In this document: piece after piece, positions 8,683 to 31,854 of the stretch
Layout: each line of letters begins with the position of its first letter
How positions within the stretch are numbered: the first letter of the stretch is position 1
Origin: a virus
Length of the DNA: 64,000 nt
Strand: one strand, 5' to 3'
IMG/VR virus record: IMGVR_UViG_3300037826_000057
Location: 13,054-77,053 of that record
Notes under the pieces: generated by a model
Seen by the model: the letters and a program-made list of their open reading frames with translations, nothing else
Told to the model about the DNA's origin: nothing
The model's database searches: none
Translations under genes and position numbers: made by a program

Positions 8683-8793
8683 AGGTGGGTCTGAGGTATA
8701 TATGAGGTGGGGTTGAGGTTATGTGGAGTTTGCCTGAAAAAAATGAAAATCTGACCAAAGAATATAAGTAACGAACCTAAGAACACATAAAAA

Positions 8794-8829: not shown

Positions 8830-8961
8830 TTATTGTTTTAACAATTCTAATTCTGTTGATATTAATATACCTGCTAGAAGAGCAATTGCTCTTCTGGTAT
8901 ATATTTTATGTAAGTTACCGTGATTTTTAGTTAGCGTTACACCTTCTATTTTCCCAAACAT
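8830..8961 (-). CDS. Small 43-aa hypothetical protein (not in the ORF track)
   Basis: G-rich RBS then MFGKIEGVTLTKNHGNLHKIYTRRAIALLAGILISTELELLKQ*, ending just before the terminator. Confidence 0.4.
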   Translation of the reverse strand: MFGKIEGVTLTKNHGNLHKIYTRRAIALLAGILISTELELLKQ

Positions 8962-17875: not shown

Positions 17876-18130
17876 TTAATACTGTATTATCGCTCCATAA
17901 CATTCTTGACAAATGCGCCCATACTTTGATTGTATGGTTTGTTCAAAATCCGTGATCTGCCTGCACATGTTACAGACCACTTTTCCGGTATAGCAGTTAT
18001 TACATACTGCTACACCATTTGTATTATACATATAGCGCGGGAGCGCCCATTTCCCGCATACCTTACACTTTTTCATAATCTGCGGGTGTGTAAGGTTTGC
18101 ATATTCTTCATACTTTGAGGTGTCTATCAT
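17876..18130 (-). CDS. Double zinc-finger protein, first gene of the operon
   Basis: Four CxxC pairs; AAGGAG RBS. Confidence 0.7.
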   Translation of the reverse strand: MIDTSKYEEYANLTHPQIMKKCKVCGKWALPRYMYNTNGVAVCNNCYTGKVVCNMCRQITDFEQTIQSKYGRICQECYGAIIQY

Positions 18131-18189
18131 AAAATCACTCCTTGGTTGTTATTTATGAATTGCCGGCGCGTTTTCTTGCCGACACTCTC

Positions 18190-18218
18190 AGTATAGCGGA
18201 GCAAACTTACCGTGTCAA
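18190..18218 (-). promoter_or_regulatory. Sigma70-type promoter (class A) for the ligase operon
   Basis: TTGACA-17-TATACT. Confidence 0.8.
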
Positions 18219-18327
18219 GGGGGTTTAGAAAACCAGCCCAAATCCGCGGTTAAATTTTTTGGTAAACTGGTCTGGTAAATAACCATAAATTATCAACCAC
18301 GATTTTTGTTTGGTCAAAAGATTGCCC

Positions 18328-18356
18328 TTGACACGGTAAATTCGGCGTGTTATAGT
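18328..18356 (+). promoter_or_regulatory. Sigma70-type promoter (class A), divergent
   Basis: TTGACA-17-TATAGT with extended TG. Confidence 0.8.
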
Positions 18357-18392
18357 CAAAGCGTCGGCGGGCAAAGCCCGAAATCCGCTTAT

Positions 18393-18470
18393 AGGCCCAT
18401 AGCTCAGTCTGGTTAGAGCGTCCGGCTCATAACCGGGTGGTCACTGGTTCAAATCCAGTTGGGCCTACCA
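18393..18470 (+). tRNA. tRNA with CAT anticodon, most likely Ile2 (lysidine type); elongator Met not excluded
   Basis: Acceptor AGGCCCA/TGGGCCT, TAGCTCAG D-arm, CT-CAT-AA loop, GTTCAAATC, encoded CCA; no initiator features. Confidence 0.88.
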
Positions 18471-18490
18471 TTAACTTATAAGGAGGAAAA

Positions 18491-18907
18491 ATGCATTTTA
18501 TAGCAGAGTTTATGTGTAGTAGTAGTCTTAATTACGTAACCACAATTTCAACCTCTGAAGTGGGTTGGGAATTGTTTAGCAAATTGCAAAGGGAGTTTCC
18601 TGGTTTAAAGATAAAGAATGTACAGGGAACAATACCAGCACACTTTAAGAACGAGGTTAGTTTTGAGGTTCCGTTAGAATATGTAGCCAGGTGCCATAGA
18701 TTTACAAATGCAAATATGGTTAAAGTTATGGTGCGAGAAGCAGACCTGAATAAGTTTGTTGTAGTAGAGCGAGAGGTTCAGGAAGGTAAAACTTTTCCTG
18801 GTATGCAGCCTCATGTGTTTACCAAAGTTAGGTATAATCGCAGGATTGACCAGGAAAAGCTCCTGGCAGCTTGGGAAGCTGCTGGGTACAAGAATTACTT
18901 TGTATAA
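18491..18907 (+). CDS. Hypothetical protein
   Basis: AGGAGG RBS. Confidence 0.7.
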   Translation: MHFIAEFMCSSSLNYVTTISTSEVGWELFSKLQREFPGLKIKNVQGTIPAHFKNEVSFEVPLEYVARCHRFTNANMVKVMVREADLNKFVVVEREVQEGKTFPGMQPHVFTKVRYNRRIDQEKLLAAWEAAGYKNYFV

Positions 18908-18916
18908 GGAGGTAAA

Positions 18917-19504
18917 ATGTCCTATTGGTATTTTAATTTGAGTAAGTTCAACGTTGAATTGCCGGAGCGTTATCAAGAGGCAGGCTTCTCTATTAAGAGA
19001 GTTTCACACCACCAATGGTATAACGATACTTTCCTAATAGGGAAGAAGAATTCAGGTGTTCAAGGGTGCCTGGCTCCGTTCCCAGGCACCTGTGGTACAG
19101 GTGTTGCATTCAAGGTTAGGGGGGATAGAAATCAAATTGACGAAGTATTGGCGGTAATTGAGTGTGTAGCGGCTCAAATGAAGTTTAGTAGTCTGATGTA
19201 TTCTACTACACTTCGACCAGCATATTACGATCTTCGCAAGGTGCTTGAAGAGAGGGGGTATGTAAAAGAAGTATCCCGTCGGAACCGTAGGTATTCGCGC
19301 AAAGGTAGACCAGTAGTGTTTTATACAAAGTATGGACTTCACCCCATATACGGAACCACCAGAGAAGAAGAAGCGGAGTACCATCAAACGGGATATAAAC
19401 AGGAATATTTAAGGATGCATTTAGAGACCGCTCTCGCAGCGGTGCAAAATGCAGATAAAGAGTTAGCAATCAGTACGTTAGAAAATTTATTAAAGGAGGT
19501 ATAA
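18917..19504 (+). CDS. Hypothetical protein, possible GNAT-like fold
   Basis: AGGAGG RBS; PFPGTCG and LRKVLEERGY pattern. Confidence 0.5.
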   Translation: MSYWYFNLSKFNVELPERYQEAGFSIKRVSHHQWYNDTFLIGKKNSGVQGCLAPFPGTCGTGVAFKVRGDRNQIDEVLAVIECVAAQMKFSSLMYSTTLRPAYYDLRKVLEERGYVKEVSRRNRRYSRKGRPVVFYTKYGLHPIYGTTREEEAEYHQTGYKQEYLRMHLETALAAVQNADKELAISTLENLLKEV

Positions 19505-19505
19505 T

Positions 19506-19925
19506 ATGTCAGTACCGTATACCGTACTAGTTGCACTGGTAATCGTAAGTAGCGTGTGGGTTGGGATCCCAGTAGTCGAAAACAACTGGGATCACGTCCA
19601 AGAGAGAAACCACACCGACGCTTACGAACTTAAGCAAGATTTCCTAACCGGGAATCTTTCAGAGTACGAAGTATGGTACTCTTTGAAAAAGGGTACTGTA
19701 TTAGTACTGGCAAGGACGGATAATGGTTTGTTCTTGGGTGTAATAGTGAGAATCTTTGAGTTCCGAAATGGTAGCCTGCGTGTACTCGATTCTGATACTG
19801 GGTATGTATGCACCGCTATGGTGCACCCGTATGGATATTGGAGGTACATACAGAAGCGAGATTCTTATGCACCAATGATACTGGGTTCGCCAATGTACCA
19901 CCTACTGTTTAGGTGGTTTGAATAG
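19506..19925 (+). CDS. Membrane-anchored or secreted hypothetical protein
   Basis: Hydrophobic N-terminus; AAGGAGG RBS. Confidence 0.65.
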   Translation: MSVPYTVLVALVIVSSVWVGIPVVENNWDHVQERNHTDAYELKQDFLTGNLSEYEVWYSLKKGTVLVLARTDNGLFLGVIVRIFEFRNGSLRVLDSDTGYVCTAMVHPYGYWRYIQKRDSYAPMILGSPMYHLLFRWFE

Positions 19926-19933
19926 TGTGTTGT

Positions 19934-20018
19934 GCCGGTGTGGTGGAATCTGGTAGACACCGGGGACTTAAAATCCCCTGATCGCAAGGTCGTGAGGGTT
20001 CGACTCCCTCCACCGGCA
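19934..20018 (+). tRNA. tRNA-Leu (TAA), CCA not encoded
   Basis: GCCGGTG/CACCGGC acceptor, GGGGA-CTTAAAA-TCCCC anticodon arm, long variable arm, GTTCGACTC. Confidence 0.92.
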
Positions 20019-20029
20019 CTTGTTTAAAA

Positions 20030-20103
20030 GCCCTGGTAGCTCAATTGGATAGAGCACCGGACTTCTAATCCGGTGGTTGCTGGTTCAAATCCAGCCCAGG
20101 GTA
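20030..20103 (+). tRNA. tRNA-Arg (TCT), CCA not encoded
   Basis: GCCCTGG/CCAGGGT acceptor, CCGGA-CTTCTAA-TCCGG arm, GTTCAAATC. Confidence 0.92.
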
Positions 20104-20134
20104 TCGTAGGATTTTAATAATTAAAGGAGGTATC

Positions 20135-20440
20135 ATGGTCATATTTGGGCCTAAAAATAAAGAACAACAGGTTTTCCGAGTAGAGCGGGTTCAGCCACCG
20201 GAACCGCCAGTACCTGAGGAAGTTGAACGTGAAATAGGTGAGGGTGGGGTAGGTGAGGGTGTGGTGGGTGAGGGTAGGGCGGGTGAATTTGAACCACCTG
20301 AGCGTCAACCTGCTCAATTTGATGGTGCGCCGGAAGTGTCTCTCCGAGAACCAGACAACCTGGAAAATTGGAGAGAAATAACATTTGGTAGTTTCAATTT
20401 CTGGGTGAAAGAAGAGAATGAAGAGGTAGAAAATGAATAA
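20135..20440 (+). CDS. Acidic low-complexity protein
   Basis: AAGGAGG RBS; (V/I)GEGx repeats. Confidence 0.6.
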   Translation: MVIFGPKNKEQQVFRVERVQPPEPPVPEEVEREIGEGGVGEGVVGEGRAGEFEPPERQPAQFDGAPEVSLREPDNLENWREITFGSFNFWVKEENEEVENE

Positions 20441-20696
20441 AATACTGTACTTTACGATGTTATGGTTTTTGCTGGGGTTGATACCTAGTGTATCCACCGC
20501 ATTACACATATATTGTCTCTTGGAATATGAAACCGTGAAAGATATTATTACATGGGGTAGACTAATTTTCTTTTTCCTATGCCTACCTTCCAACCTAGTT
20601 GTATTATTGACAATTCTCTTATTATTCTTGGTGCAGAGAATTGGAAGAATTGTCAAAGATGTTGAAAGCTGGTTTAGCCAGCCAATTTTCAAATAA
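20433..20696 (+). CDS. Small membrane protein (two hydrophobic segments)
   Basis: Hydrophobic stretches; GAGG RBS. Confidence 0.6.
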   Translation: MNKILYFTMLWFLLGLIPSVSTALHIYCLLEYETVKDIITWGRLIFFFLCLPSNLVVLLTILLLFLVQRIGRIVKDVESWFSQPIFK

Positions 20697-21024
20697 TCTG
20701 GTAAAAGAATCGCGCAGTTACGCAAAACCCTCACCTCATGCAGCATGTGCTTCATGGCATGTGCATGCATGAGGTGGGAATGTTATAATAAGGTAAAGAT
20801 ATTTAGAGCTTGCGTAACGAACCAAAAAATTTTTACCAGCTCTCCCAAGCCTGGTAGACTACCTTCTTTTATATAACGCGCATGCGCGCGCATGTGCATG
20901 TACAGTATAAGGTAGATTAACTACGGGGTAGGTTAATTAGAAGGTAACTTAATCTTGGTTAATACCGAATTTCATTTAGTCACAATCAATCAACCAAGAC
21001 TTTTAGCTGGTTTTTTAAACCCCC

Positions 21025-21053
21025 TTGACACGGTAAGTCTAGTGTGTTATAGT
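21025..21053 (+). promoter_or_regulatory. Sigma70-type promoter (class A)
   Basis: TTGACA-17-TATAGT; 21006-21038 matches 18205-18237 (minus strand) at 32 of 33 nt. Confidence 0.82.
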
Positions 21054-21120
21054 AAAAGCGTCGAACAAGGCAGGCCGAGAGGCTAAAAAATTATTTACCA
21101 GACCTAAAGGAGGTCACAGA

Positions 21121-21513
21121 ATGAACGTTAAACTAGTTATGAACCAAGATTCAATTAAAAGCAGCGCGGTAAAGGTAAAAACGCAGACGGTCTTCATCAA
21201 TGGAGAAGAGAACGAGTTCGCGTCTTTCGTAGATACCGCGTACATCCCTCATGGGGTGTACGAGGAATTAGAGAAAGACCCTGAGGAATCAGTGGTTTTG
21301 ACCTTTACCGACGAAGAGCCAGAAGACAACCTTCTTTACCAGGAGATGGTCGAAGAGAGGGAAACCAAGAACACCCGAGTTTTGAACCACAACACCATCT
21401 ATTTAGATGGTGAGGCTCTCTCAAGTCTGGCGGTTGGTATTAGAGGTATCTATGTGCAAAAAGACTCTTTCGACAAGGCATTTGATGGTGACCTCTGGTT
21501 AGCCATTTCCTAG
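21121..21513 (+). CDS. Hypothetical acidic protein
   Basis: AAGGAGG RBS; followed by a hairpin. Confidence 0.72.
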   Translation: MNVKLVMNQDSIKSSAVKVKTQTVFINGEENEFASFVDTAYIPHGVYEELEKDPEESVVLTFTDEEPEDNLLYQEMVEERETKNTRVLNHNTIYLDGEALSSLAVGIRGIYVQKDSFDKAFDGDLWLAIS

Positions 21514-21517
21514 TAGT

Positions 21518-21578
21518 TTAAACCCAAACCCTGGGCACAACCGGGTAAGTTGTGCCTGGGAGTTTGGGTTTAAGCTTT
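21518..21578 (+). terminator. Long hairpin, probable terminator
   Basis: TTAAACCCAAAC...GGGCACAAC / GTTGTGCCT...GTTTGGGTTTAA. Confidence 0.6.
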
Positions 21579-21601
21579 TAAGTATGATATGAGGAGGTAA
21601 A

Positions 21602-22042
21602 ATGGCTAGAGAACGCGGTAAGGACAACATATTCACAGAGAAAGACCTGTGTCTGGTGATTCATCGGGCGGAACGCACCGCCTACGTAGTAGGTGGGCGC
21701 GGTCAGGCAGAGAAGGTAGTAGACATGCTCGGTAAAGATGAATGTTTGAAATTCACCTGGAGAGGTGATGAACAATACTTTAAGCCACTGTTATACCGCT
21801 CCAGCCGGCGCTTATCTGCGGGTATAAGTTCGGATAACAAAATGGTTGATTCTGTGGTGATTATGTTCAACGAATCTAAATTTGACATCCGGTTTGTGAA
21901 ACCGGGTGTACAAGGGGTAGAAAAGAGAATACCTACGACTGGTAAGGAGGAAGCCTTTCGCGACTTACCAACAGGTGTTTCAGTGAAGGAGTATCTTAAG
22001 AAACGATATAACGGTCAGGTAGACGCTTGGCCGGTAGAGTAG
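21602..22042 (+). CDS. Hypothetical protein
   Basis: GAGGAGG RBS. Confidence 0.7.
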   Translation: MARERGKDNIFTEKDLCLVIHRAERTAYVVGGRGQAEKVVDMLGKDECLKFTWRGDEQYFKPLLYRSSRRLSAGISSDNKMVDSVVIMFNESKFDIRFVKPGVQGVEKRIPTTGKEEAFRDLPTGVSVKEYLKKRYNGQVDAWPVE

Positions 22043-22051
22043 GGAGGTAGA

Positions 22052-22432
22052 ATGAACCAGGGAAAGAAGTTACGTAAAGCTTTTAAAGTATTGTATCAAG
22101 GTAACTGGATTAGAGGTTTGGATGACGGCGAGGACGTCCGGGTCTCGGTAATGACAATCATTCAAACTTCTTATTTAAGGTCTAACGCGACCCGGAACAA
22201 GAAGACCATCGCGGAGGATGTCGCTAACCTGTTATCATTTAGTTGTCGCGGTCTCTCTTTAGTGGGGGAGATAGAAGTGGAAAGTGATCTTACCCAACGC
22301 GAGAAAGGTGTTGGGTATACGGGGAAGACCTACTATGTACGGTTGCGTACCCGGGGTATGCGCAACTGGGACTTCGGTCGAGTTTTTGCGGTGAGGACAC
22401 GTTCTAACCTTACGCAGATGACCTGGCTATAG
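22052..22432 (+). CDS. Hypothetical protein
   Basis: GGGAGG RBS. Confidence 0.7.
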   Translation: MNQGKKLRKAFKVLYQGNWIRGLDDGEDVRVSVMTIIQTSYLRSNATRNKKTIAEDVANLLSFSCRGLSLVGEIEVESDLTQREKGVGYTGKTYYVRLRTRGMRNWDFGRVFAVRTRSNLTQMTWL

Positions 22433-22470
22433 TCTGGGGTAAGTTTCTCTCTTAACCAAAGGAGGTAGAA

Positions 22471-22923
22471 ATGAACGAGCAAAAATATCTGAGTGACGAA
22501 ACAATTGACCGTTTGCGTAACCTGCATAATGTCAACCGTCTTGAGGTTCAAGACTGGGGAGATATTTCCCTAGTCTTGGGGTATGAAATTAAGTCTGACC
22601 AGGCTTATGTCGTTAAGATTGATGAAATTGAAGGTGTGTTCGTTTTGCTGCCTAAAACCTTCTTAGAGGAGTTCAGCCGCAATGATGAAATTGAAGTTTG
22701 CGGGTATTACCTCTGGGAGCGGTGGGGTAGTAAACGGTTTATGCTTGGGCCTAAAGAGCATATGGGTTCAATTAATAAAATAGCACGGTGTCATTCTTGG
22801 ACAGTCGAACTTGACAAGCACCGTGTTCGCCACAGTACCCGTGATATATCTGAAATCAAGTGCGAAGTTGATACCGCACGTGAGTATGAACGTCGCATTA
22901 CCGTAAGAATCGAAAAGATTTAA
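22471..22923 (+). CDS. Hypothetical protein
   Basis: AAGGAGG RBS. Confidence 0.7.
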   Translation: MNEQKYLSDETIDRLRNLHNVNRLEVQDWGDISLVLGYEIKSDQAYVVKIDEIEGVFVLLPKTFLEEFSRNDEIEVCGYYLWERWGSKRFMLGPKEHMGSINKIARCHSWTVELDKHRVRHSTRDISEIKCEVDTAREYERRITVRIEKI

Positions 22924-22981
22924 TATTCTGACTTTAATATTCTAACCCCACTCTTAATCGAGTGGGGTTAAGGAGGTAGAA

Positions 22982-23362
22982 ATGAATGAGGTAGAACGAG
23001 CCAAGAACAAATTTCTCAAGAGGGTAAACAAATACACCGCGGGAATTTTCGAGTTTGAGAGTTCGGTCCAACTGGCGAGAGCGACAAGAACCCGGTTGGA
23101 TAAAACTAGGGAAATAACGCATTATGGTGTCACATTGGAGGCTGTCAAACTTGACGGTAGTACATATGCTTACCGTTGTCTGTGTGACGGTAAACGCACC
23201 GGTTGGCAGGTTGACAATGCTCGTTGGTTGCTAGACTTTTTCACCCGGTGCATTTACAGGGTGGAAGAGGAGAGAAAAACCTTCGACATGGTAGGTTTCC
23301 GGAAGGTTCCGGAATGGGAAAATATTCTTGGGATTTCTTACCAGGATTTGATTAGCTCTTAG
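22982..23362 (+). CDS. Hypothetical protein
   Basis: AAGGAGG RBS preceded by the hairpin TAACCCCACTC/GAGTGGGGTTA. Confidence 0.7.
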   Translation: MNEVERAKNKFLKRVNKYTAGIFEFESSVQLARATRTRLDKTREITHYGVTLEAVKLDGSTYAYRCLCDGKRTGWQVDNARWLLDFFTRCIYRVEEERKTFDMVGFRKVPEWENILGISYQDLISS

Positions 23363-23377
23363 CAGGGAGGTATAAGG

Positions 23378-23983
23378 ATGAAGAAGGTATGCACGAAGCA
23401 GGTCTGTTACTCAGACATTTTGGAATCCCTTTACACCAAGCCGGGTTCGCCCGGTGAGGAGGTGGGGATTTACTCAGACTTTCTACCTGGAAGTTTGGGT
23501 ACTCTAATCCTCGGCGAAGAAACCGAGGAAGAGTGGCTTGACCAGCACTTTGAAAATACCGTAGCCTGGGAATTGGAGAATGCAGGTTACACCGTGGTAG
23601 GTGAAGTTAATGGAAAACCATGGGATGAATTGTTTTACGTAAACGACCGGATTGAGGAATCTTTACAAGGGCGCGAGGTTAGAATCAGACGGGTATATGC
23701 AAGTGATGGGTTGTATACTCGTCATATTTGGGTGTTTTTGTGGGACAGTATTGCAAATCGGTGGTTAACCTCTAGACAACTCATTCAACCGGTTGGGCCT
23801 TGCTTGGAGTTTTCCACCTCTTCAGAGGTGGAAAAGTATTACGGGTATGAAACGGATGGTTGGTGCCCCTGCAACCATTGTCGGATGAAGGAAGACCTGG
23901 TAGAATGGACAAGTAATGTATTCTACCAAATTAGTTTTACCCACATTGAATGGAGTGAAGCAGGTGAAATTAAACCATATTAA
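23378..23983 (+). CDS. Hypothetical protein
   Basis: GGGAGG RBS; CPCNHC motif. Confidence 0.7.
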   Translation: MKKVCTKQVCYSDILESLYTKPGSPGEEVGIYSDFLPGSLGTLILGEETEEEWLDQHFENTVAWELENAGYTVVGEVNGKPWDELFYVNDRIEESLQGREVRIRRVYASDGLYTRHIWVFLWDSIANRWLTSRQLIQPVGPCLEFSTSSEVEKYYGYETDGWCPCNHCRMKEDLVEWTSNVFYQISFTHIEWSEAGEIKPY

Positions 23984-24014
23984 AAATAGTTTAAGGTGAA
24001 AATAGGAGGTAAAA

Positions 24015-24365
24015 ATGAAACCAACTTTGGAAGACGTTGCTGGGGGTATACTAATATTCTTGATTATTGGTGTACCCTGTATTATTTTTTTAGACGCTTG
24101 GATACCAAAACACGGTACTCAGGAAGTAGCGGTTCTCAAAAAGATAGTAGTACCCAAAGACAATATTGAGTTTAAGGTTGAGGTTGGTGGTGAGTTAAAA
24201 ACGGTATATTCGTGGTCTCGGTCTAGGTGTGTTTACTTTTTTGAACATAGGGGCCGGGTGCTGCGAGTAGTCGCGCCAGACCATTATATAAGAAATAGAA
24301 TTACCGTAAGCTACAAAATCTCGAAAATATGGGGTGCTTACGAGTATAGGTTGGTAATTAAATAA
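24015..24365 (+). CDS. Membrane-anchored hypothetical protein
   Basis: AGGAGG RBS; N-terminal hydrophobic helix. Confidence 0.7.
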   Translation: MKPTLEDVAGGILIFLIIGVPCIIFLDAWIPKHGTQEVAVLKKIVVPKDNIEFKVEVGGELKTVYSWSRSRCVYFFEHRGRVLRVVAPDHYIRNRITVSYKISKIWGAYEYRLVIK

Positions 24366-24382
24366 ATAGAAGCAGCAGTATC

Positions 24383-24419
24383 AATAACTCCAGGTATAAA
24401 AGCCTGGAGTTTATTTTTT
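24383..24419 (+). terminator. Intrinsic terminator
   Basis: AACTCCAGG...CCTGGAGTT followed by TATTTTTT. Confidence 0.75.
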
Positions 24420-24467
24420 GCCGAGTGTAAGGTATATAACCAAAGCGTTATAACCACCAGTAATAAT

Positions 24468-24562
24468 ATTTCGGTGTTAAATTGAAAGTATCTCGGTGCT
24501 AAAATCTAAAAGTTTCGGTGCTAAAATTCTAATATCTCGGTATTAAAATTCTGGTATCCCGG
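24468..24562. repeat. Degenerate tandem repeat, about 21-22 bp unit (TCTCGGTGCTAAAATT core), 4-5 copies
   Basis: TCGGTGTTAAA, TCGGTGCTAAAA (twice), TCGGTATTAAAA. Confidence 0.7.
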
Positions 24563-24629
24563 CCCCGAAAAGAGAGTAAAAACCACCTAAAAACCCACCT
24601 AATATAGTAATTAAGTTACCAATAACACA

Positions 24630-24895
24630 GGATAAGATGGTAGTAAGTAATAGTAAGTATAAAACAGTGGTGGTATAAAGTGGTGGTATAGAAAGGTATG
24701 CGGTATAGATAGGTGATTATGGTATAGATATAGAGTGGGGTTATGGTATAAGATGGTGGTATAGGATGGGGGTGAAGCGGTCGGTATAGGATGGTGGTTA
24801 TGGGGTATCAGGTCAACAACCTTACACATACATACCCACAAGTACATACCCACAAGTATGCACCAACACCCCACACCACCATACCAAACTACCTG
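24630..24895. repeat. G-rich GGTATAG tract followed by a C/A-rich tract
   Basis: 24630-24810 has very few C; 24815-24895 has very few G. Confidence 0.7.
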
Positions 24896-25124
24896 GTAAG
24901 CACATCGCGCAGTTACACGCACACCGAGCCTAGATATTTACCATATTTATAGTTACTGTGGCACTGGTGGGTGCAACCTTCTTGCTAAAACCTCCTATAG
25001 AAACCAGATTCTCCTCTAGCGCAAACCAGATTCTCTGGTAACGCACCCCTGCGCTTACACGTGTATATACCGGTTGAATACCTACTCCACGTTAGGTGCT
25101 AGGTATAAATAAATAGGTGGAAGC

Positions 25125-25272
25125 GGGTTGGTACTGGGAAATTGGTACTAAGGAGTTGGTACTGAGGAGTTGGTACTGGCCTGATAACGAAAATACGTGC
25201 GGAGACCAGTATATATCTAAACCAGTATATATGAAGACCAGTATATATGAAGACCAGTATATATAGAGACCG
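25125..25272. repeat. Short tandem repeats (TTGGTACT x4; ACCAGTATATAT x4)
   Basis: Read directly from the sequence. Confidence 0.7.
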
Positions 25273-25520
25273 TAGTGAGGCCCTACCTACAGAGTAATAA
25301 CCTAATACAGACATTCTAATCAGGTATATATAATTGTGCATAGATTTTAATTGTGCATAAGTTGGGATTTTATCTGAGTAATGAACCTACCTCTTTTGGG
25401 TAATGAACCTACCCCCTATCCTGGCGATAAGCCTTTTTATATACACGTGTGCGCATGTGCTAAACTGACGCATGATCCTGGCATGTGTGTTGCCTAACGC
25501 CAGTACACTCTCCAGTACAC

Positions 25521-25548
25521 TTGACAATGCGTCAGCATGTGCTATAAT
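25521..25548 (+). promoter_or_regulatory. Sigma70-type promoter (class B)
   Basis: TTGACA-16-TATAAT with extended TG. Confidence 0.8.
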
Positions 25549-25554
25549 AACGCT

Positions 25555-25641
25555 ATGTTAAAGAAAAGCCCACTCCGAAGCAGAAACCGGCGGTCTCTTG
25601 TCCGCCAAGTAGGAGACCGGGCCAAGATAACCGGGAGGTGA
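25555..25641 (+). CDS. Candidate leaderless 28-aa basic peptide
   Basis: ATG 6 nt after TATAAT; MLKKSPLRSRNRRSLVRQVGDRAKITGR*; TGATG-coupled to a 16-aa ORF. Confidence 0.3.
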   Translation: MLKKSPLRSRNRRSLVRQVGDRAKITGR

Positions 25642-25730
25642 TGATTAAAGATGCTACGTTGGTCGTAACACAATTTAGTATTCTAGGGTAAGTTGCGGGG
25701 GAAGTCCCCATTTAACAAGGAGAAACCAGA

Positions 25731-25919
25731 GTGAAACTCGTTAATGAAGGAAAAGAAATTTCAATTTCACAGGTAACCTTAGACTTCATCTACCACTCAC
25801 TGGTAGTACAGTCCGAGGTAGAAGAAAATTCAATGTTACCCGACGATGTTGTTCGTCAGGAAATGTTGGAGGTAGCCGATTTAATTAGGGAAGTCTTAGT
25901 TGAGGAGAAACCAAAGTGA
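25731..25919 (+). CDS. Hypothetical acidic protein
   Basis: AAGGAG RBS, GTG start. Confidence 0.65.
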   Translation: MKLVNEGKEISISQVTLDFIYHSLVVQSEVEENSMLPDDVVRQEMLEVADLIREVLVEEKPK

Positions 25920-26044
25920 GGATTCACATTCGAATAGAAGAAACCCACGCGCAGGAATTGGAAGAAAAAGATAGAAACCGAGCGAGAAGGTTACGCTCAG
26001 AAAGAAGAAAGCGTCAAGCGGTTAAGAAAGGAGAAAGTAAATAA
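25916..26044 (+). CDS. Small basic 42-aa protein (not in the ORF track)
   Basis: GAGGAG RBS; GTGA and TAATG overlaps; MRIHIRIEETHAQELEEKDRNRARRLRSERRKRQAVKKGESK*. Confidence 0.55.
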   Translation: MRIHIRIEETHAQELEEKDRNRARRLRSERRKRQAVKKGESK

Positions 26045-26340
26045 TGTATTGCCAAATGTGTAACAAGACCGGTCCCGGTGTAGAAGTGAGAAAAAAGCAC
26101 CGGCGTGCGCTATGCATTAAATGTGCAATGCAAACACCAAGAAAGGTAAGTAAACAGGAATTCTTGGAAGTAATGTGGGGTGAGCATCTAAGTGAGGTGC
26201 CTTCTCACATTAAACGGGAATTCTATCAGGATTATATGCTTAGCCAGAATACCCTGGTTAAGTATATCCTGTATTCCTGCTCAGATGTTCATACCGAACA
26301 ACAAGCATACCGGCGGATTGTAGATAGGATTGAGGTGTAA
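26044..26340 (+). CDS. Zinc-finger hypothetical protein
   Basis: CQMC...CIKC; AAGGAG RBS. Confidence 0.68.
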   Translation: MYCQMCNKTGPGVEVRKKHRRALCIKCAMQTPRKVSKQEFLEVMWGEHLSEVPSHIKREFYQDYMLSQNTLVKYILYSCSDVHTEQQAYRRIVDRIEV

Positions 26341-26374
26341 CCGTAAAAATTTTTCGCGGTTACACGTAGGAATT

Positions 26375-26414
26375 AGAGGGTAAGTAGTTAATTCTACTTG
26401 CCCTTTTTTATTTT
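26375..26414 (+). terminator. Intrinsic terminator
   Basis: AGGGTAAGTAG...CTACTTGCCCT followed by a T-tract. Confidence 0.75.
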
Positions 26415-26451
26415 GCCGACCGGAAAAGCCTAATAACGAACCTAGTACTTA

Positions 26452-26622
26452 CTCTGGTATAATCCTGCTTTAGTATAATCCTGCTCTGGTGTAACTCTTC
26501 TTGGTATAACTCTTCTTGATATAATCTTACTCTGGTGTAATTCTTCTCGGTATAACTCTTTTTGGTATAATAATACTGTTAGTATAATAATATTACTAGT
26601 ATAATAATGCTATTAACATAAT
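26452..26622 (+). repeat. Eleven tandem 15-17 bp units, each with a TATAAT-like hexamer
   Basis: Hexamers at 26458, 26474, 26490, 26505, 26520, 26536, 26551, 26566, 26583, 26600 and 26617. Confidence 0.8.
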
Positions 26623-26691
26623 AATGAACCTTACATGCGCGTGCGCGTGTGCTTGTAATATAGGATGGACAATCGACTATTTGACGCCAGC

Positions 26692-26719
26692 TTGACAATG
26701 CCACAGAACATGCTATAAT
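26692..26719 (+). promoter_or_regulatory. Sigma70-type promoter (class B)
   Basis: TTGACA-16-TATAAT with extended TG; shares TTGACAATGC and TGCTATAATA with the 25521 promoter. Confidence 0.8.
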
Positions 26720-26770
26720 AGGCTTGCGTTAAGGAAAGATTTAGTAAGAAGAATTAACCAGGAGGTTAGC

Positions 26771-26980
26771 ATGATTCGGTCAGATGTTCATACAACCGGT
26801 AGCATAGAGCACAACGAAATCATTCTCACGCGCGGTATGGATTGTTATGCCGCACTCACAACCTCCCGGGAATATAACCGGGAGATGCAAATGTACCATC
26901 GGCATTTCATTCTTCTGGTTGAGGGATATGACGACGACATTCCTCAACCAGATTGGAATGCTGATTACCAGGGGGTATAA
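26771..26980 (+). CDS. Hypothetical protein
   Basis: AGGAGG RBS. Confidence 0.68.
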   Translation: MIRSDVHTTGSIEHNEIILTRGMDCYAALTTSREYNREMQMYHRHFILLVEGYDDDIPQPDWNADYQGV

Positions 26981-26981
26981 G

Positions 26982-27203
26982 ATGCAGGTCAAGATTGAGA
27001 TAAACGGATACGGGCCTCTGGTCAATGATCTGGCCGAGGTATTAAAGCGGGACTTACAAAAGTCCATAGAAACGTATTATACGGTCAGGAAAGAATTCGA
27101 TGAATACCTCGCGCAAGAATGCGCAGAGGTTAGTATTGAAAGCACGGTAAGACTGAATGACGGTCTTACTGGTGCTCAGGCAAATATCGAGATAGTTGAG
27201 TAG
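26982..27203 (+). CDS. Hypothetical protein (MQVKIEING...)
   Basis: AGGGGG RBS; start reassigned from 26847. Confidence 0.62.
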   Translation: MQVKIEINGYGPLVNDLAEVLKRDLQKSIETYYTVRKEFDEYLAQECAEVSIESTVRLNDGLTGAQANIEIVE

Positions 27204-27212
27204 GGAGGTATA

Positions 27213-27482
27213 ATGTACAAGTTGTTCAAGCTTACACAGGAAAAGATTTTCCAGGTTGAAGACCGCAAGGTTAAGATGTATATAAGTAAGAACCGTGAGA
27301 CGGTTAAGGTAACGTTAACGGATATGCAAGGCCGGGTACTTGCTACCCGGCACTTCTCCAGGGGTTGGCGACCTCGGCATTGGAACCTGACCACCTGTAA
27401 GGGCGGTTGGGATGCTGAGTTGAGTTATACCGTGGGGCGTGGAGCAGGGATCCACCGGTCAAGTATGTTTTTAGATTTGTAG
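27213..27482 (+). CDS. Hypothetical protein
   Basis: GGGAGG RBS. Confidence 0.68.
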   Translation: MYKLFKLTQEKIFQVEDRKVKMYISKNRETVKVTLTDMQGRVLATRHFSRGWRPRHWNLTTCKGGWDAELSYTVGRGAGIHRSSMFLDL

Positions 27483-27499
27483 GTAGGAGGTAAAAAATC

Positions 27500-27529
27500 G
27501 AGAGGGTGAAATTCCCTCTCTTTTATTTT
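27500..27529 (+). terminator. Intrinsic terminator
   Basis: GAGAGGG-TGAAATT-CCCTCTC followed by TTTTATTTT. Confidence 0.75.
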
Positions 27530-27929
27530 ACCCCTGCTAGTGAATATATAACGAACCTAGCACCAAATACCCTCTCCAAAATATTCTATGGTAAGAGGTT
27601 CTATGGTAAGAGGTTCTGTGGTAAAAGTTCCCCGCGCTTACATATTACAACCTCTCTGGTAATTAGCTTCTCCAGCAGCTAGCTTTTCTGGTAAATACTT
27701 CCCCGCGTTACACGTAACCCATATTCTGGTTAGTAGTTAAACTTACAATTTATTTTTCAATCTTGTGACAATTTCTTAAAATTTCAGAAATAGCGGTAAA
27801 AGTCAGAAATAGCGGTAAAGGCTTTGCGCGGTTACACTCAGGCTTGAGCTGGTAACGCACCGCCTGGTTAACACATTGCCGCAAGAAATCTTGCTACAAC
27901 AGAATCCGCTTGCAATATTAATTGTAGCA

Positions 27930-28433
27930 AAAAAATATAACAAAGTATCATTATAATGCAATAACAAAAAGACACCACAAAGTATAACTATATTGTAACA
28001 TTAATTACAGTAAAGAAATTTTGTAAAATATAATTGTATTACAATATGGTGTGTAGTACAATTAAATATACATTACTGATATATTATACGATAAAATATG
28101 TATGAAAGTAAGTATGTAATGAACCAGAAAATTGCCAAAAGAATTGTATCAAATAAACACCGCAAAACACAATTATACTGTAATTAATATTACAGTAAAG
28201 AAATATAACAAAGTATCATTATACTGTAATCTGGTTTGTAGTACAATTAAATATATATCTTCTGATATACTATGCGATTAAATATGTATACAATTAAATA
28301 TTATATAATCAGATATATAATACAATTAAATATGTATGCAATTAAATATATATAACGAACCGGGGAATTGCCAAGGGAATTGCAATCATAAGATACACTG
28401 GCAATTGATACACTGGCAATTGATACACTGGCA
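27930..28433. repeat. AT-rich degenerate direct duplication plus three 15-bp GATACACTGGCAATT repeats
   Basis: ATATAACAAAGTATCATTATA, GTAGTACAATTAAATATA and TAAYGAACC...AATTGCCAA each occur twice; triple repeat at 28392-28433. Confidence 0.72.
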
Positions 28434-28673
28434 TGTATATATAAGGAGGGATACAATTATAGGGGGATTGTAAGATAAACTTGTAAAAGCTTTTAGAATG
28501 CATGAAATGTTATGCACTTGCAAAAAAGCATTGCATTGCTAAGCATAAAATAGCTTGAAATCGCCTGAAATCGCCTTAAAAGTGTAGCTTTTGCAAAATA
28601 TCATTGCAAAAGTTAGCAATTTTAGGGAATTTGGGAATATCCGACGGTTTTAACATTACTGCGTATTTTACGC

Positions 28674-28701
28674 TTGCGATATTCTACTATCCCGCTATAA
28701 T
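28674..28701 (+). promoter_or_regulatory. Probable sigma70-type promoter
   Basis: TTGCGA-16-TATAAT. Confidence 0.55.
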
Positions 28702-28707
28702 TGTAAG

Positions 28708-28915
28708 CGTTCTTTAATAATTAAATAGCTTTGGACTTATTCAACGCGCGGGCGTATGTGGCGCTAGCACTTTTACGAAACGGGTTCCGTAGCCCGACGC
28801 ACAAGCTCATAGTTGCGCACAATGAGCGAGCGAGAGCAGCTTCAACGATTTACGACGGCTCCACATGTGACGCGCGGATTGTCCAGGCGCGTTTGTTTGG
28901 ATTTTCTAGCTTATG
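28708..28915 (+). ncRNA. Candidate structured non-coding RNA or long 5' leader
   Basis: GC-rich island with nested pairings TGGAC/GTCCA, ATGTGG/CCACAT, CGGGT/GCCCG and GCTCAT/ATGAGC; no RBS-supported ORF. Confidence 0.4.
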
Positions 28916-28923
28916 GGAGTAGA

Positions 28924-29070
28924 ATGATGAAATGCCGTAACTGTGGCAAAACATACTCGAAACATGAACGTGATGAAATGCTGGCGTATATGTTTGTCGG
29001 CGCGCCGGATGAGGATTACATAGTCCTTATTGAGGGATTGTGTATAGACTGTTGGCCGGAATACTATTAA
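28924..29070 (+). CDS. Small zinc-finger protein (MMKCRNCG...CIDC)
   Basis: GGGAG RBS; start reassigned from 28813. Confidence 0.62.
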   Translation: MMKCRNCGKTYSKHERDEMLAYMFVGAPDEDYIVLIEGLCIDCWPEYY

Positions 29071-29080
29071 GGGGGATAAG

Positions 29081-29278
29081 ATGAAAAAGATTAAACGTAT
29101 CTTAATTGTGATAGTGTTGGCTTTGCCCTTAATCCTCTCCGCCGTAGCTTGCGATGACGAGGACGGCGACGGGGATGTAAGTATCGGACGGGAAGCATGC
29201 GTAGCGGCATGCTCCCTCCAGTACGAACGCGGCAGCGAAAGCTGGCATAGTTGCACTTCATTATGCCCAGCTGATTAA
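29081..29278 (+). CDS. Small lipoprotein
   Basis: Basic N-terminus, hydrophobic core, lipobox AVA-C, then an acidic linker and four further Cys. Confidence 0.75.
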   Translation: MKKIKRILIVIVLALPLILSAVACDDEDGDGDVSIGREACVAACSLQYERGSESWHSCTSLCPAD

Positions 29279-29319
29279 TCTTAACGATAGATCAAATAAG
29301 AATAGTAAAGGAAAAGACA

Positions 29320-30183
29320 ATGACAATCCAGATGGAAAAGCTCGAGAGTCTGTTAGCTAAAGAACACATTAACGCTCTGGATGTAATCGGAGCGTTAGAC
29401 TACTGCCTCAATGCCAAGGCAGTAGAATTTGAAATACTCAATAACTCCAGAAAAGCCTGGGGCAAGCCGATAAGAAGCACGCCGACAAGGCTTGCCCAAA
29501 AAGGCACGCTATACAGCAAGGACGGGGAAGTAGTGCAAGCTTCCCCAAGCAGCACTAAAGGCGCAACTAGCACTTTTAAGAGTGCAAGGAAAGATAACGG
29601 AAAAGAGTATGCGGCTATCCTCTTGGATTCACTATTGCCAAATGAAAGCAGCAAGTTAGCTGCTATGTTGGCAATAGTCGATGATGTAGACTTCACAAAA
29701 GTCCTTGGAAAAGAAGCGGGGCAAGCAGCTGAAAAGCTGGCAAAGGCAACAGTAGAATTGTTCTTTTGTCAAGTGGAAGTAAACAACGAACGCTTGCCCA
29801 GCAAAGTATCACGAAAATCCCAAGCTATGGGCGATTCCGACGCCCAAGCTGAAGCCGACGAGAGCTCGCTCACTCCGGCGCAACGCGCCGCCAATCGTAT
29901 AGCGCGATTGAAGGGCAACGAGCTGCCCTATAGCGAGAGCGAACAAGCCGACGAACAAGCCGACGAACAAGCTGGCGAACAAGCCGATTTCAATGCCGAT
30001 GAACTCGACGAACTCACTGACGTGAAGTATATCGGAACGTCAACGGCAGAAAAGCTGTTATCGCACGGCTGGACGCTGGATCAAATTAACGTCCAGTATA
30101 AGCTGCATGGCGAGCTTCCGCCGGAAGTACAAGAAATTGTATCCGCTAAGGCGGCAGACAATCTTAAAAAAGAAATTGAATAG
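29320..30183 (+). CDS. Hypothetical protein with C-terminal helix-hairpin-helix DNA-binding motif
   Basis: ELTDVKYIGTSTAEKLLSHG; EQAD repeat linker encoded by 12-nt repeats at 29941-29988. Confidence 0.7.
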   Translation: MTIQMEKLESLLAKEHINALDVIGALDYCLNAKAVEFEILNNSRKAWGKPIRSTPTRLAQKGTLYSKDGEVVQASPSSTKGATSTFKSARKDNGKEYAAILLDSLLPNESSKLAAMLAIVDDVDFTKVLGKEAGQAAEKLAKATVELFFCQVEVNNERLPSKVSRKSQAMGDSDAQAEADESSLTPAQRAANRIARLKGNELPYSESEQADEQADEQAGEQADFNADELDELTDVKYIGTSTAEKLLSHGWTLDQINVQYKLHGELPPEVQEIVSAKAADNLKKEIE

Positions 30184-30186
30184 CAT

Positions 30187-30225
30187 AAAATATGGGCAAG
30201 TGTAAAAGCTTGCCCATATTTTTTT
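30187..30225 (+). terminator. Intrinsic terminator (bidirectional potential)
   Basis: AAAATATGGGCAAG...CTTGCCCATATTTTTTT. Confidence 0.8.
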
Positions 30226-30344
30226 GTGGCAATAAACTAAATAAGCATTATAATAATCTAATATATAATAAGATAGATTATTATAATAAGATAGATAGAT
30301 ACAACGGATATATTATAAAATACTAACATATTATAAAATATCTA

Positions 30345-30453
30345 GGTATTTTTTAATGCGTGCATATTTTTTAATACTGCGGTATTTTTTAATATGAGGG
30401 TATTTTATAATACTGTGATATTTTTTAATACTGCGGTATTTTTTAATATCACG
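30345..30453. repeat. Six copies of an 18-19 bp unit (GGTATTTTTTAATACTGC)
   Basis: Read directly from the sequence. Confidence 0.75.
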
Positions 30454-30712
30454 GTCTATTTTATTTTGTAGATAAACTTGCAATCCCCCCTATTGACCGT
30501 AAAAAAAGCCTACCGTGCTGTGGCGCCGGCCCCATGTGAACCCCTTACACGCCACAACCAAAAATCCCAAAGTTCATGCCAATCCCAAAGTTGGTAACCG
30601 CAGAGTGGGTAGGATCATAAAGTTGGTAGGATCACAAAGTAGGTAACCGTAAAATTGGTAACTATATTGGTGTATATTATATATCAGTGTATATTATATT
30701 GGTATTTGTATA

Positions 30713-30991
30713 TTAATACCTTTTATAACTTATTCTTATCTCTAGTTCTGTGCTGTTATCTAGGGCTGTGTTTACTTCTTCTATTTTATCTAGTATTTCT
30801 TGCAGCATTTTATCACGGGTTTTTCTACTTTGGTTTATTTTTTCTTCGGTCTCTCTTATTGTTCTGCGTGCGCTGCTAGCTCTTCTGGTGTCTGCTTTCA
30901 ATAGTTCCTCCCAGCTTATATTTTCCTTACCTAATTTTTCCTCATTTAATCCCGCCTTACTTGATTTTGCCCTATCGCACATCGGACACAC
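30713..30991 (-). CDS. Hypothetical coiled-coil protein next to the holin-like gene
   Basis: AAGGAGG RBS, GTG start. Confidence 0.55.
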   Translation of the reverse strand: MCPMCDRAKSSKAGLNEEKLGKENISWEELLKADTRRASSARRTIRETEEKINQSRKTRDKMLQEILDKIEEVNTALDNSTELEIRISYKRY

Positions 30992-30998
30992 CTCCTTA

Positions 30999-31310
30999 TT
31001 AGGTACCTACTTCCTTGTAGGTACCTAATTGTTCCAGTATTTTGTTTAATACTGAATTTAATTCTTGGCTGAGTTTTAGGTATTTTTTGGTTTGTTCGTT
31101 CTCGTGCTCGGCCAGCTCTCTTAGTAGTTCTACTTCTCTATCCCTTGCCTGAATTATTACATCTCTGACGGATTTAGATAGTTCTTGTTTGCATTTTAGA
31201 ACCTTTCTATACTCACGCCAGAGGTATATTACAGCCCATCCCAAACCAATAACCATAATACCCAAAGGCCCGTATCCAAGCAATATACTCTCTAATGTTA
31301 ATTCTTGCAA
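30999..31310 (-). CDS. Holin-like protein (BhlA/UviB-like architecture)
   Basis: One N-terminal membrane helix (GYGPLGIMVIGLGWAVIYLW) plus coiled coil; end of the late operon. Confidence 0.55.
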   Translation of the reverse strand: MQELTLESILLGYGPLGIMVIGLGWAVIYLWREYRKVLKCKQELSKSVRDVIIQARDREVELLRELAEHENEQTKKYLKLSQELNSVLNKILEQLGTYKEVGT

Positions 31311-31435
31311 ACTTATAACCTCCTGGACTTATAAATTTTTTTTCAATTATAAAAAATTTACACTTAGAGATTTTTACACTTATAGATTTTTACACTTATA
31401 AGTTTTTAGATTTACAATCTAGCAAATTTGTTATT

Positions 31436-31482
31436 TTGTAAATTTATAATCTTGTAAATTTATAATCTTGTAAATTTATAAC
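31436..31482. repeat. Three copies of TTGTAAATTTATAATC
   Basis: Read directly from the sequence. Confidence 0.65.
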
Positions 31483-31491
31483 CTGTTAAAT

Positions 31492-31854
31492 TTATGCCTT
31501 AACTTCTATAATCTTATCTAATAGCTGCCAGTCCTGAATACTAAATTCACCAGAAATATTCTCTAAATCTATTTCCGGGGGTGTAAAGTCTATATCTACT
31601 TCCTGTGCTAAAAGCTCTGAAAATTCTTGAGCAAACTTTCTAGCTTCTACACTATCAGCTTTAATACTTATACCCTTAGTAGTTTTTGTAGCGTATTTTT
31701 TAATTAGTTTTTCACGCTCTTTTTCTATAATTTCAATTTCATCAAAAATAACCTGAAGTTCTTTATTTAATTTATAACTTTGTACTGCGCTCATATTTGC
31801 CTGTACTAACTTACCTAATGCTTGCCTTGCATTCCAAATGTCTAATAATTGCAT
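31492..31854 (-). CDS. DUF1617-like protein downstream of the tail fibre
   Basis: SYKLNK...EKEREKLIKKY...ELLAQEVDI pattern and gene position. Confidence 0.6.
   Translation of the reverse strand: MQLLDIWNARQALGKLVQANMSAVQSYKLNKELQVIFDEIEIIEKEREKLIKKYATKTTKGISIKADSVEARKFAQEFSELLAQEVDIDFTPPEIDLENISGEFSIQDWQLLDKIIEVKA

Follow-up and report, generated by a model that had tools for sequence, protein, structure and literature searches.

What is the function of a short word that stands on one strand only, and only between operons, in a phage genome? The word, TAAYGAACC, was found in a 64-kb stretch of DNA (the window), which is the right part of the 77,053-bp virus record IMGVR_UViG_3300037826_000057; some scans covered the whole genome. 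At ~18–31 kb of the window lie successive + strand units (U1 to U4) of small open reading frames (ORFs) without Pfam or PHROGs families, and these early units have consensus or near-consensus sigma-70 promoters at their start and intrinsic terminators at their end. The spacers between them are non-coding, 0.3–1.4 kb long and packed with many different short tandem arrays. The motif occurred at operon boundaries in long spacers only, and none was seen inside operons or in the structural arm. Its strand, placement and conservation support an oriented, selected cis element that would fit a protein-binding site, most likely the docking site of a regulator and not a chance repeat.

Nine copies of TAAYGAACC (S1 to S9, Table 1) were found on the + strand and none on the − strand, both in the window and in the whole genome. 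In 100 shuffles of the window the mean number was 1.19, and 0/100 reached nine. A position-weight scan of both strands gave scores of at least 17.3 for the nine copies and at most 15.9 for the next best sites. All nine copies were in non-coding DNA, which makes up 11.9% of the genome. The first-pass annotation of the window had listed nine + strand, non-coding copies and proposed the count and strand bias against a shuffled background as a check; all nine coordinates proved to be exact, and the bias held genome-wide. The fuller form of the motif was R-TAAYGAACC, with a T coming next in six of the nine copies, making a non-palindromic word of 9–12 bp. The nine copies represent seven independent loci, because 25379 and 25401 are a 22-bp tandem pair and 28117 and 28353 lie within a larger duplication. 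Since several other degenerate 9-mers with at least three G/C likewise reach nine copies, our case was built on placement and conservation, not on the count.

Portal protein homologues were plentiful in metagenomes, and one near-complete relative (G001, 80,112 bp, portal 57% identical) was compared. In G001 the word read TATCTAACC (full form GGTATCTAACCT) and was present eight times, each time on the + strand (8:0); seven were in the syntenic early region and one followed the ribonucleotide reductase (RNR) gene, as does S1 (8769). The post-RNR copy lay ~110 nt downstream of the stop codon of that gene, with the A-rich side of a terminator hairpin ~20 nt away. The two spellings were exclusive, TAAYGAACC being absent from G001 and TATCTAACC from the present genome; their outer letters are alike (GTA...AACCT) and the three central letters differ. 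A 5.4-kb metagenome contig (L088), whose neighbouring amidoligase is 39% identical, carried TACAATAACGAACC twice in the same orientation, with TAACGAACC kept. Because the word is exact amid diverged flanks, was re-spelled jointly in G001 and is kept in L088, it appears to be under selection by one trans-acting reader.

Among more distant portal relatives (43–44% identity) TAAYGAACC, TAWYKAACC and GTANNNAACCT were not enriched; another contig, L090, had the conserved early protein described below and no recognisable motif, and relative G002 consisted of structural genes only. When IMG/VR was scanned with the amidoligase, a 201-aa early protein and the conserved early protein, the only match was G001, or there was none. 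A literature search for the motif words yielded only primers.

A number of familiar signals were tried as identities of the word and dropped on reading the sequence: a sigma-70 −10 or −35 element or an extracytoplasmic-function (ECF) −35; an integration host factor (IHF) site, NtcA or LexA box, DnaA box or Chi-like site; and a tRNA T-arm remnant or three-frame stop signal. A MotA-type box was dropped because no −10 stands at a constant distance, and the target-site duplication of a mobile element because the spacers have no relation to each other.

Seven of the nine copies were unambiguously co-directional with the flanking + strand units, S1 being in a convergent and S2 in a divergent gap; − strand operons had no copies. 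Distances to terminators were counted from where the scanning tool ended the stem. The motif followed the terminator stem by 27 and 28 nt in this phage, by 29 and 25 nt in G001 and by 25 nt in L088. In four of these five post-terminator cases the T-tail ended in (A/G)CC and was followed by 15–16 nt of constant length but not sequence. Three copies had earlier been placed after a terminator; this is right for 26434 and 27549 (stem ends 26406 and 27520) and imprecise for 8769, which stands ~95 nt ahead of a + strand terminator at 8872–8899. Because the distance to terminators is fixed and the motif is co-oriented with the + strand units, a role in transcription is suggested. In this phage the motif stood 61, 111, 201 and 312 nt before the −35; in L088 this distance was 27 nt, and in G001 it was 27 nt for one copy and 119 nt for a second. 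The claim that 26434 and 26622 bracket a tandem array was also borne out, the arrays at 26448–26625 lying between S5 and S6. The layout common to the three phages was thus: terminator, ~27 nt, motif, spacer, motif, (alternating tract), promoter. A first possible decayed copy began 25 nt after the U1 terminator (24386–24411).

Table 1. Boundary motif copies (S1–S9), promoters, terminators, alternating purine-pyrimidine (RY) tracts and tandem arrays, in window positions
Feature	Position	Strand	Remarks
S1 (TAACGAACC)	8769..8777	+	convergent gap after RNR; 18 nt beyond − strand terminator 8822->8796
S2	20815..20823	+	divergent gap; 52 nt before RY tract 1, 201 nt before −35 of P21025
S3, S4 (TAATGAACC x2, 22-bp tandem unit)	25379..25409	+	111–133 nt upstream of P25521 −35
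S5	26434..26442	+	27 nt after terminator 26375–26406; start of spacer NC2
S6	26622..26630	+	end of tandem arrays; 1 nt before RY tract 3, 61 nt before P26692 −35
S7	27549..27557	+	28 nt after terminator 27500–27520; start of spacer NC3
S8	28117..28125	+	within AT-rich duplicated block (repeat family D16)
S9	28353..28361	+	paralogue of S8; 312 nt before P28674 −35; left edge of GGT/ACC-poor zone
Two possible decayed copies (TAACCAAAG, 6 of 9; TAACCACC)	24437..24459	+	putative, from reading the sequence; both under position-weight threshold
U1 promoter, sigma-70-type (TTGACA-17-TATAGT), 11/12	21025..21053	+	
U2 promoter, consensus 12/12, TG-extended	25521..25548	+	
U3 promoter, consensus 12/12, TG-extended	26692..26719	+	
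U4 promoter, 10/12	28674..28701	+	
U1 intrinsic terminator	24386..24411	+	
U2 intrinsic terminator, tail TTTATTTTGCC	26375..26406	+	
U3 intrinsic terminator, tail TTTTATTTTACC	27500..27520	+	
RY tract 1	20876..20904		29 nt, CG/CA type; TTTATATA before
RY tract 2	25438..25460		23 nt; TTTTTATATA before; end 60 nt ahead of P25521 −35
RY tract 3	26632..26652		21 nt; end 39 nt ahead of P26692 −35
RY run	28431..28443		13 nt; chance level, left out of architecture
Tandem arrays, 16- and 17-bp units each with TGnTATAAT-like word	26448..26625	+	families D8, D10, D12

The first-pass annotation had also put promoters at 21025, 25521, 26692 and 28674 and an RY tract ahead of each. The promoters were recovered with the scores listed in Table 1, and the coordinates of all four tracts were exact. 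About 12 RY tracts of at least 12 nt were expected by chance, and a longest tract of 19–24 nt was reached only in the top 5 of 100 simulated genomes. The tracts of 29, 23 and 21 nt, taken together, were therefore exceptional, while the 13-nt run was not. The long tracts were of the CG/CA type, stood ahead of promoters by position, and each was preceded by the word TTTATATA. The RY element was conserved, since a perfect 28-nt RY palindrome was found in G001 just upstream of a promoter, 12 nt before the −35.

Contigs from four other tidal-flat samples were compared over positions 18000–31500 (15 of 33 joints listed). The spacers were hypervariable, with repeat units lost or gained at 25120–25194, 28298–28347, 30254–30501 and 30575–30757. 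Samples X2, X3 and X5 had 22 nt more behind 25382 and thereby a third motif unit of 22 bp, spelled TAAC; both the Y-position spelling and the copy number thus vary in nature. A 120-bp sequence (27561–27680), starting 3 nt after the S7 motif, was missing in all four samples, and one X2 contig skipped 26592–26690, which comprises S6 and RY tract 3. At the level of genes, 22041–23383 (three early genes) was replaced by 31 nt and 22476–22969 (one gene) was missing, the ends being at gene junctions inside U1. Because natural variants do without them, these early ORFs are dispensable accessory genes.

The reading that we favour, tentatively and at a little less than an even chance, is that R-TAAYGAACC-(T) is the site of a lineage-specific trans-acting factor, most likely a phage DNA-binding protein, and works as a polar transcription boundary. 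Copies of the motif stand at either edge of the spacers, full of repeats, that separate + strand units: one ~27 bp past an intrinsic terminator and at least one upstream of the next sigma-70 promoter. A further copy closes the long replication/RNR operon. The bound factor would act in a polar manner, as a roadblock or like the stoperators of mycobacteriophages (see below), and could halt both read-through from the upstream unit and transcription begun in the promoter-like spacer arrays (some of them rows of TGnTATAAT-like words). Polymerases would thereby be kept from running into the strong promoter that comes next, or into the convergent operon beyond RNR. Ahead of the promoter, after the last copy of the motif, the CG/CA RY tracts form a second conserved element, which would be either an operator or DNA that responds to supercoiling by forming Z-DNA or a cruciform. 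The tandem copies are 22 bp apart, about two helical turns, and this was counted as a sign of cooperativity.

The boundary might even be of a new type, although we consider this unlikely: a factor docked on an oriented word ~27 bp past a terminator, and 27 bp before the −35 when compact, would couple termination to insulation or polymerase hand-off, with arrays and a Z-DNA-prone tract between the docks. We know of no earlier description of such sites at a fixed spacing to intrinsic terminators.

Several points weigh against a polar boundary site. The phage looks lytic, unlike stoperator phages. A roadblock would be partly redundant, because the sites sit behind good intrinsic terminators and at operon boundaries only. 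The distance between motif and promoter ranges from 27 to 312 nt, and no copy follows the U4 terminator (~30196–30225). With S1 in a convergent and S2 in a divergent gap, polarity of transcription and polarity of the genome are indistinguishable. Given the X2 contig that skips them, the pair of S6 and RY tract 3 may be dispensable. Nor did the search for a binding protein help: among ~60 ORFs scanned there was no Pfam match to a helix-turn-helix protein, sigma factor, repressor, integrase, RNA polymerase or free-standing nickase, and the early ORFs had no match in PHROG. The AlphaFold model of a conserved 146-aa early protein had a pLDDT of 60, and a structure search with it gave a best Z of 3.3 and no fold match.

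This 146-aa ORF (21602–22042, + strand) was nevertheless the only early protein common to this phage, G001, L088, L089 and L090. In the relatives it was the first gene after the first early promoter, and it had a conserved VVGGxGxAE core and belonged to no family. A search of the ESM Atlas gave scores of at most 0.77 and nothing usable. The protein is a candidate reader of the motif, by its position only. No parABS match was found among the ~60 ORFs, many small ones being without any family. A separate 42-codon ORF (25916–26044, + strand) overlaps both of its neighbours, via GTGA and TAATG. Its peptide has a beta-strand-like N-terminus and a very arginine-rich tail, recalling ribbon-helix-helix proteins or N-type arginine-rich motifs, and could possibly bind nucleic acid. 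Two zinc-ribbon proteins are also encoded among the early ORFs of units U0–U4.

The absolute strand use (9:0 here and 8:0 in G001, including the copies in convergent and divergent gaps) would equally suit a strand-fixed step on the DNA itself, i.e. a T5-type nick site, a replication initiator or primosome box, or a polar packaging or ejection signal. T5-like and some Pseudomonas phages have strand-specific nick sites that are short conserved words on one DNA strand. The phage encodes Pol A, DnaB, a DnaG-like primase and RecA and has a possible initiator gene, and spacer NC1 contains origin-like inverted arrays. However, the copies are spread over 20 kb, while initiator boxes would cluster as in an origin, and neither nick nor replication sites would be expected to keep a constant distance from terminators and promoters; nick sites that do so are not known to us. 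Outside inteins and introns, neither an HNH domain nor any other nickase domain was found. The contigs, a type of data hardly able to show preferred molecule ends, did not show any. We consider a strand-fixed DNA step unlikely.

Could the word instead be a phage-specific promoter or start element, on which a phage factor redirects host RNA polymerase for a middle-mode restart past each early terminator, doubling the sigma-70 promoters? It is a short, oriented, intergenic word whose spelling differs between relatives, as that of such promoters does, and all copies but S1 face downstream + strand genes. In the post-terminator copies, TTT(A/G)CC, 15–16 unconserved nt and the motif resemble −35/−10 spacing. 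But TTTRCC is the terminator tail itself, no conserved element was seen at a fixed distance downstream, and a spacer would not need such a promoter two or three times over. The ~60 ORFs scanned revealed neither a sigma factor nor an RNA polymerase of the phage. Middle or late promoters would be needed by the operons for replication, modification and structure, none of which has the motif upstream, and S1 and its G001 counterpart are each followed within 18–30 nt by a terminator hairpin. Because the word is missing from the operons that would need a promoter and two syntenic copies face a terminator, this explanation is decidedly unlikely.

The first-pass annotation had offered a protein-binding or recombination site. 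A binding site agrees with the recurrence of sequence, strand and position in two relatives, whereas recombination was not supported. A recombination seam would be a short linker for exchange, duplication or deletion of spacers or cassettes, in the manner of the PeSL elements (promoter plus terminator stem-loop) that mediate shuffling in T4-type phages (PMC2839356). Direct repeats of the motif do flank each spacer, the 120-bp indel begins next to S7 in four samples, and the number of 22-bp units varies. On this reading, cassette breakpoints would fall at the motif. Among the joints listed, the two gene deletions end at gene junctions in U1, only the one 120-bp spacer indel adjoins a motif, and no motif-to-motif joint was seen. 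About 30 joint ends fall in spacers, and chance alone would put ~0.7 of them within 5 nt of a motif, so a single joint at a motif is no evidence for a seam. Moreover, RecA-type exchange needs more than 9–12 bp, no site-specific recombinase turned up, and the exact conservation of the word at 39% protein identity speaks for a reader and against homology for exchange. A seam is therefore improbable.

Alternating CG/CA tracts go to Z-DNA under transcription-driven negative supercoiling. The motif might accordingly serve in supercoil management, as a topoisomerase or barrier-protein site closing topological domains, with the RY tract flipping to Z-DNA or a cruciform behind a strong promoter. The motif lies just past terminators, where positive supercoils build up, and RY tracts are upstream of the three strongest promoters, while the 28-nt palindrome in G001 lies 12 nt ahead of a −35. 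There was, however, no sign of a topoisomerase preference for the word, and the RY tracts could be operators, GCATGTGC-like words being also found inside promoter spacers; we hold this to be very improbable. A functionless leftover of one ancestral terminator-spacer-promoter cassette, duplicated several times, is just as improbable, for although the two consensus promoters and leaders have 74% similarity (D13), the U2 and U3 terminator tails are alike and S8/S9 lie in a plain duplication, the flanks and the 16-nt linker have fully diverged around a 9–12-nt word that is exact in all copies, all eight G001 copies share the other spelling, and L088 keeps ours despite deep protein divergence.

All public sequencing runs that carry this DNA were tidal-flat metagenomes, with no RNA run listed among them. 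Megablast of the region against phage records gave no match, and the portal protein had only 22–27% identity to phage records, those of Microcystis phage MaeS and the Bacillus phage Slash group. The − strand encodes the tape-measure protein, an intein-bearing terminase, the portal protein and a phiEco32-type amidoligase/ATP-grasp operon. The replication module on the + strand contains, besides the four replication and recombination genes named above, three DNA methylases, a dUTPase and RNR. Three + strand tRNA genes (Met-CAT, 18393–18470; Leu-TAA, 19934–20019; Arg-TCT, 20030–20103) flank the first early unit, and contigs of many other organisms stack on them in the metagenome runs. An Rfam scan of 8000–31500 found nothing beyond these three tRNAs.

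Other words and repeats were observed in the spacers and promoters. TGGTA was strand-biased in the spacers (24412–28673), with 25 copies on the + and 4 on the − strand, and was more numerous than the boundary motif; in G001 spacers (L082, L083, L084) CGGTTA/GGTTAA occurred 9 versus 1–2 times by strand. A common core like CTGGTAA suggests a second reader, possibly kept across both phages. A CGCGGTTACAC-type word (family D3) was present at 26338–26368 and 27810–27840 and in five looser copies, and as GCGGTTAC in G001 spacers; it is another conserved spacer element. Early promoters of G001 (L082 84–112, 964–992 and 3480–3508; L083 777–805) were wrapped by an inverted repeat whose GGTTAA half preceded the −35 and whose TTAACC half fell within the promoter spacer. 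The arrangement resembles an operator for a dimeric repressor, and the TAACC of this repeat is also the 3′ half of the G001 boundary word.

Further arrays at 30340–30460 and 31340–31480, in the gaps between U4 and the structural operon, had no boundary motif; their units were an 18-bp GGTATTTTTTAATnnnnn (~6 times) and a 16-bp TTTTTACACTTATAGA or TGTAAATTTATAATCT. A stretch of 1,562 bp (28784–30344), covering unit U4, was without any GGT or ACC, although these occur 2,424 times in the genome; the gap is by far the longest for any trinucleotide pair. S9 (28353) sits at its GGT-poor left approach.

How does this arrangement compare with known systems? The RY tracts, CG/CA runs of 21–29 nt at the three strongest promoters, are like the Z-DNA-prone tracts that lie upstream of active promoters and respond to twin-domain supercoiling. 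They differ in being kept in G001 as a perfect palindrome and in always following TTTATATA, and for these reasons they may be protein sites instead. With T5-type nick sites the motif has in common a short conserved word limited to one strand; no nickase was found outside inteins and introns among the ~60 ORFs scanned.

The promoter-early stem-loop (PeSL) elements of T4-type phages are regulatory cassettes (PMC2839356). The present spacers resemble them as repeated compact modules with a strong sigma-70 promoter and a terminator stem-loop, placed between small early genes without known function in a hypervariable region. In contrast to PeSL, the conserved word here is neither promoter nor stem-loop. 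Set apart from both, it is an oriented site on either side of long spacers full of repeats, 25–29 nt past the stem and 27–312 nt before the −35, and the two gene-level indels seen in the population end away from it.

In Cluster A mycobacteriophages, stoperators block transcript elongation; they are asymmetric, point along the direction of transcription and change in sequence together with their repressor (PMC6550527). Like the sites of L5 gp71-type repressors, the present motif is asymmetric, short, multi-copy and intergenic; seven of its nine copies run with the flanking + strand units. Its spelling likewise varies among relatives (TAAYGAACC in this phage and L088; TATCTAACC in 8/8 copies in G001), and the proposed action, a block of elongation, would be the same. 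It differs in number and size, with nine copies (eight in G001) of a 9–12-bp site against ~30 copies of a 13-bp site in L5-type phages (PMC6550527). It differs also in placement: stoperators are scattered genome-wide in short intergenic gaps within operons, whereas the present sites are in long spacers at operon boundaries only, ~27 nt from terminators, with none in the late/structural arm. Repressor, integrase and partition genes were not found among the ~60 ORFs scanned in this phage, which appears to be lytic. The likeness would thus be an analogy of a proposed mechanism, not membership. If a factor does dock on the word, stoperator-like, orientation-fixed boundary control would operate in a lytic-looking phage far from the mycobacteriophages, and a 10-bp word together with a few early ORFs would give a handle on how strong, close-packed early units avoid interference.

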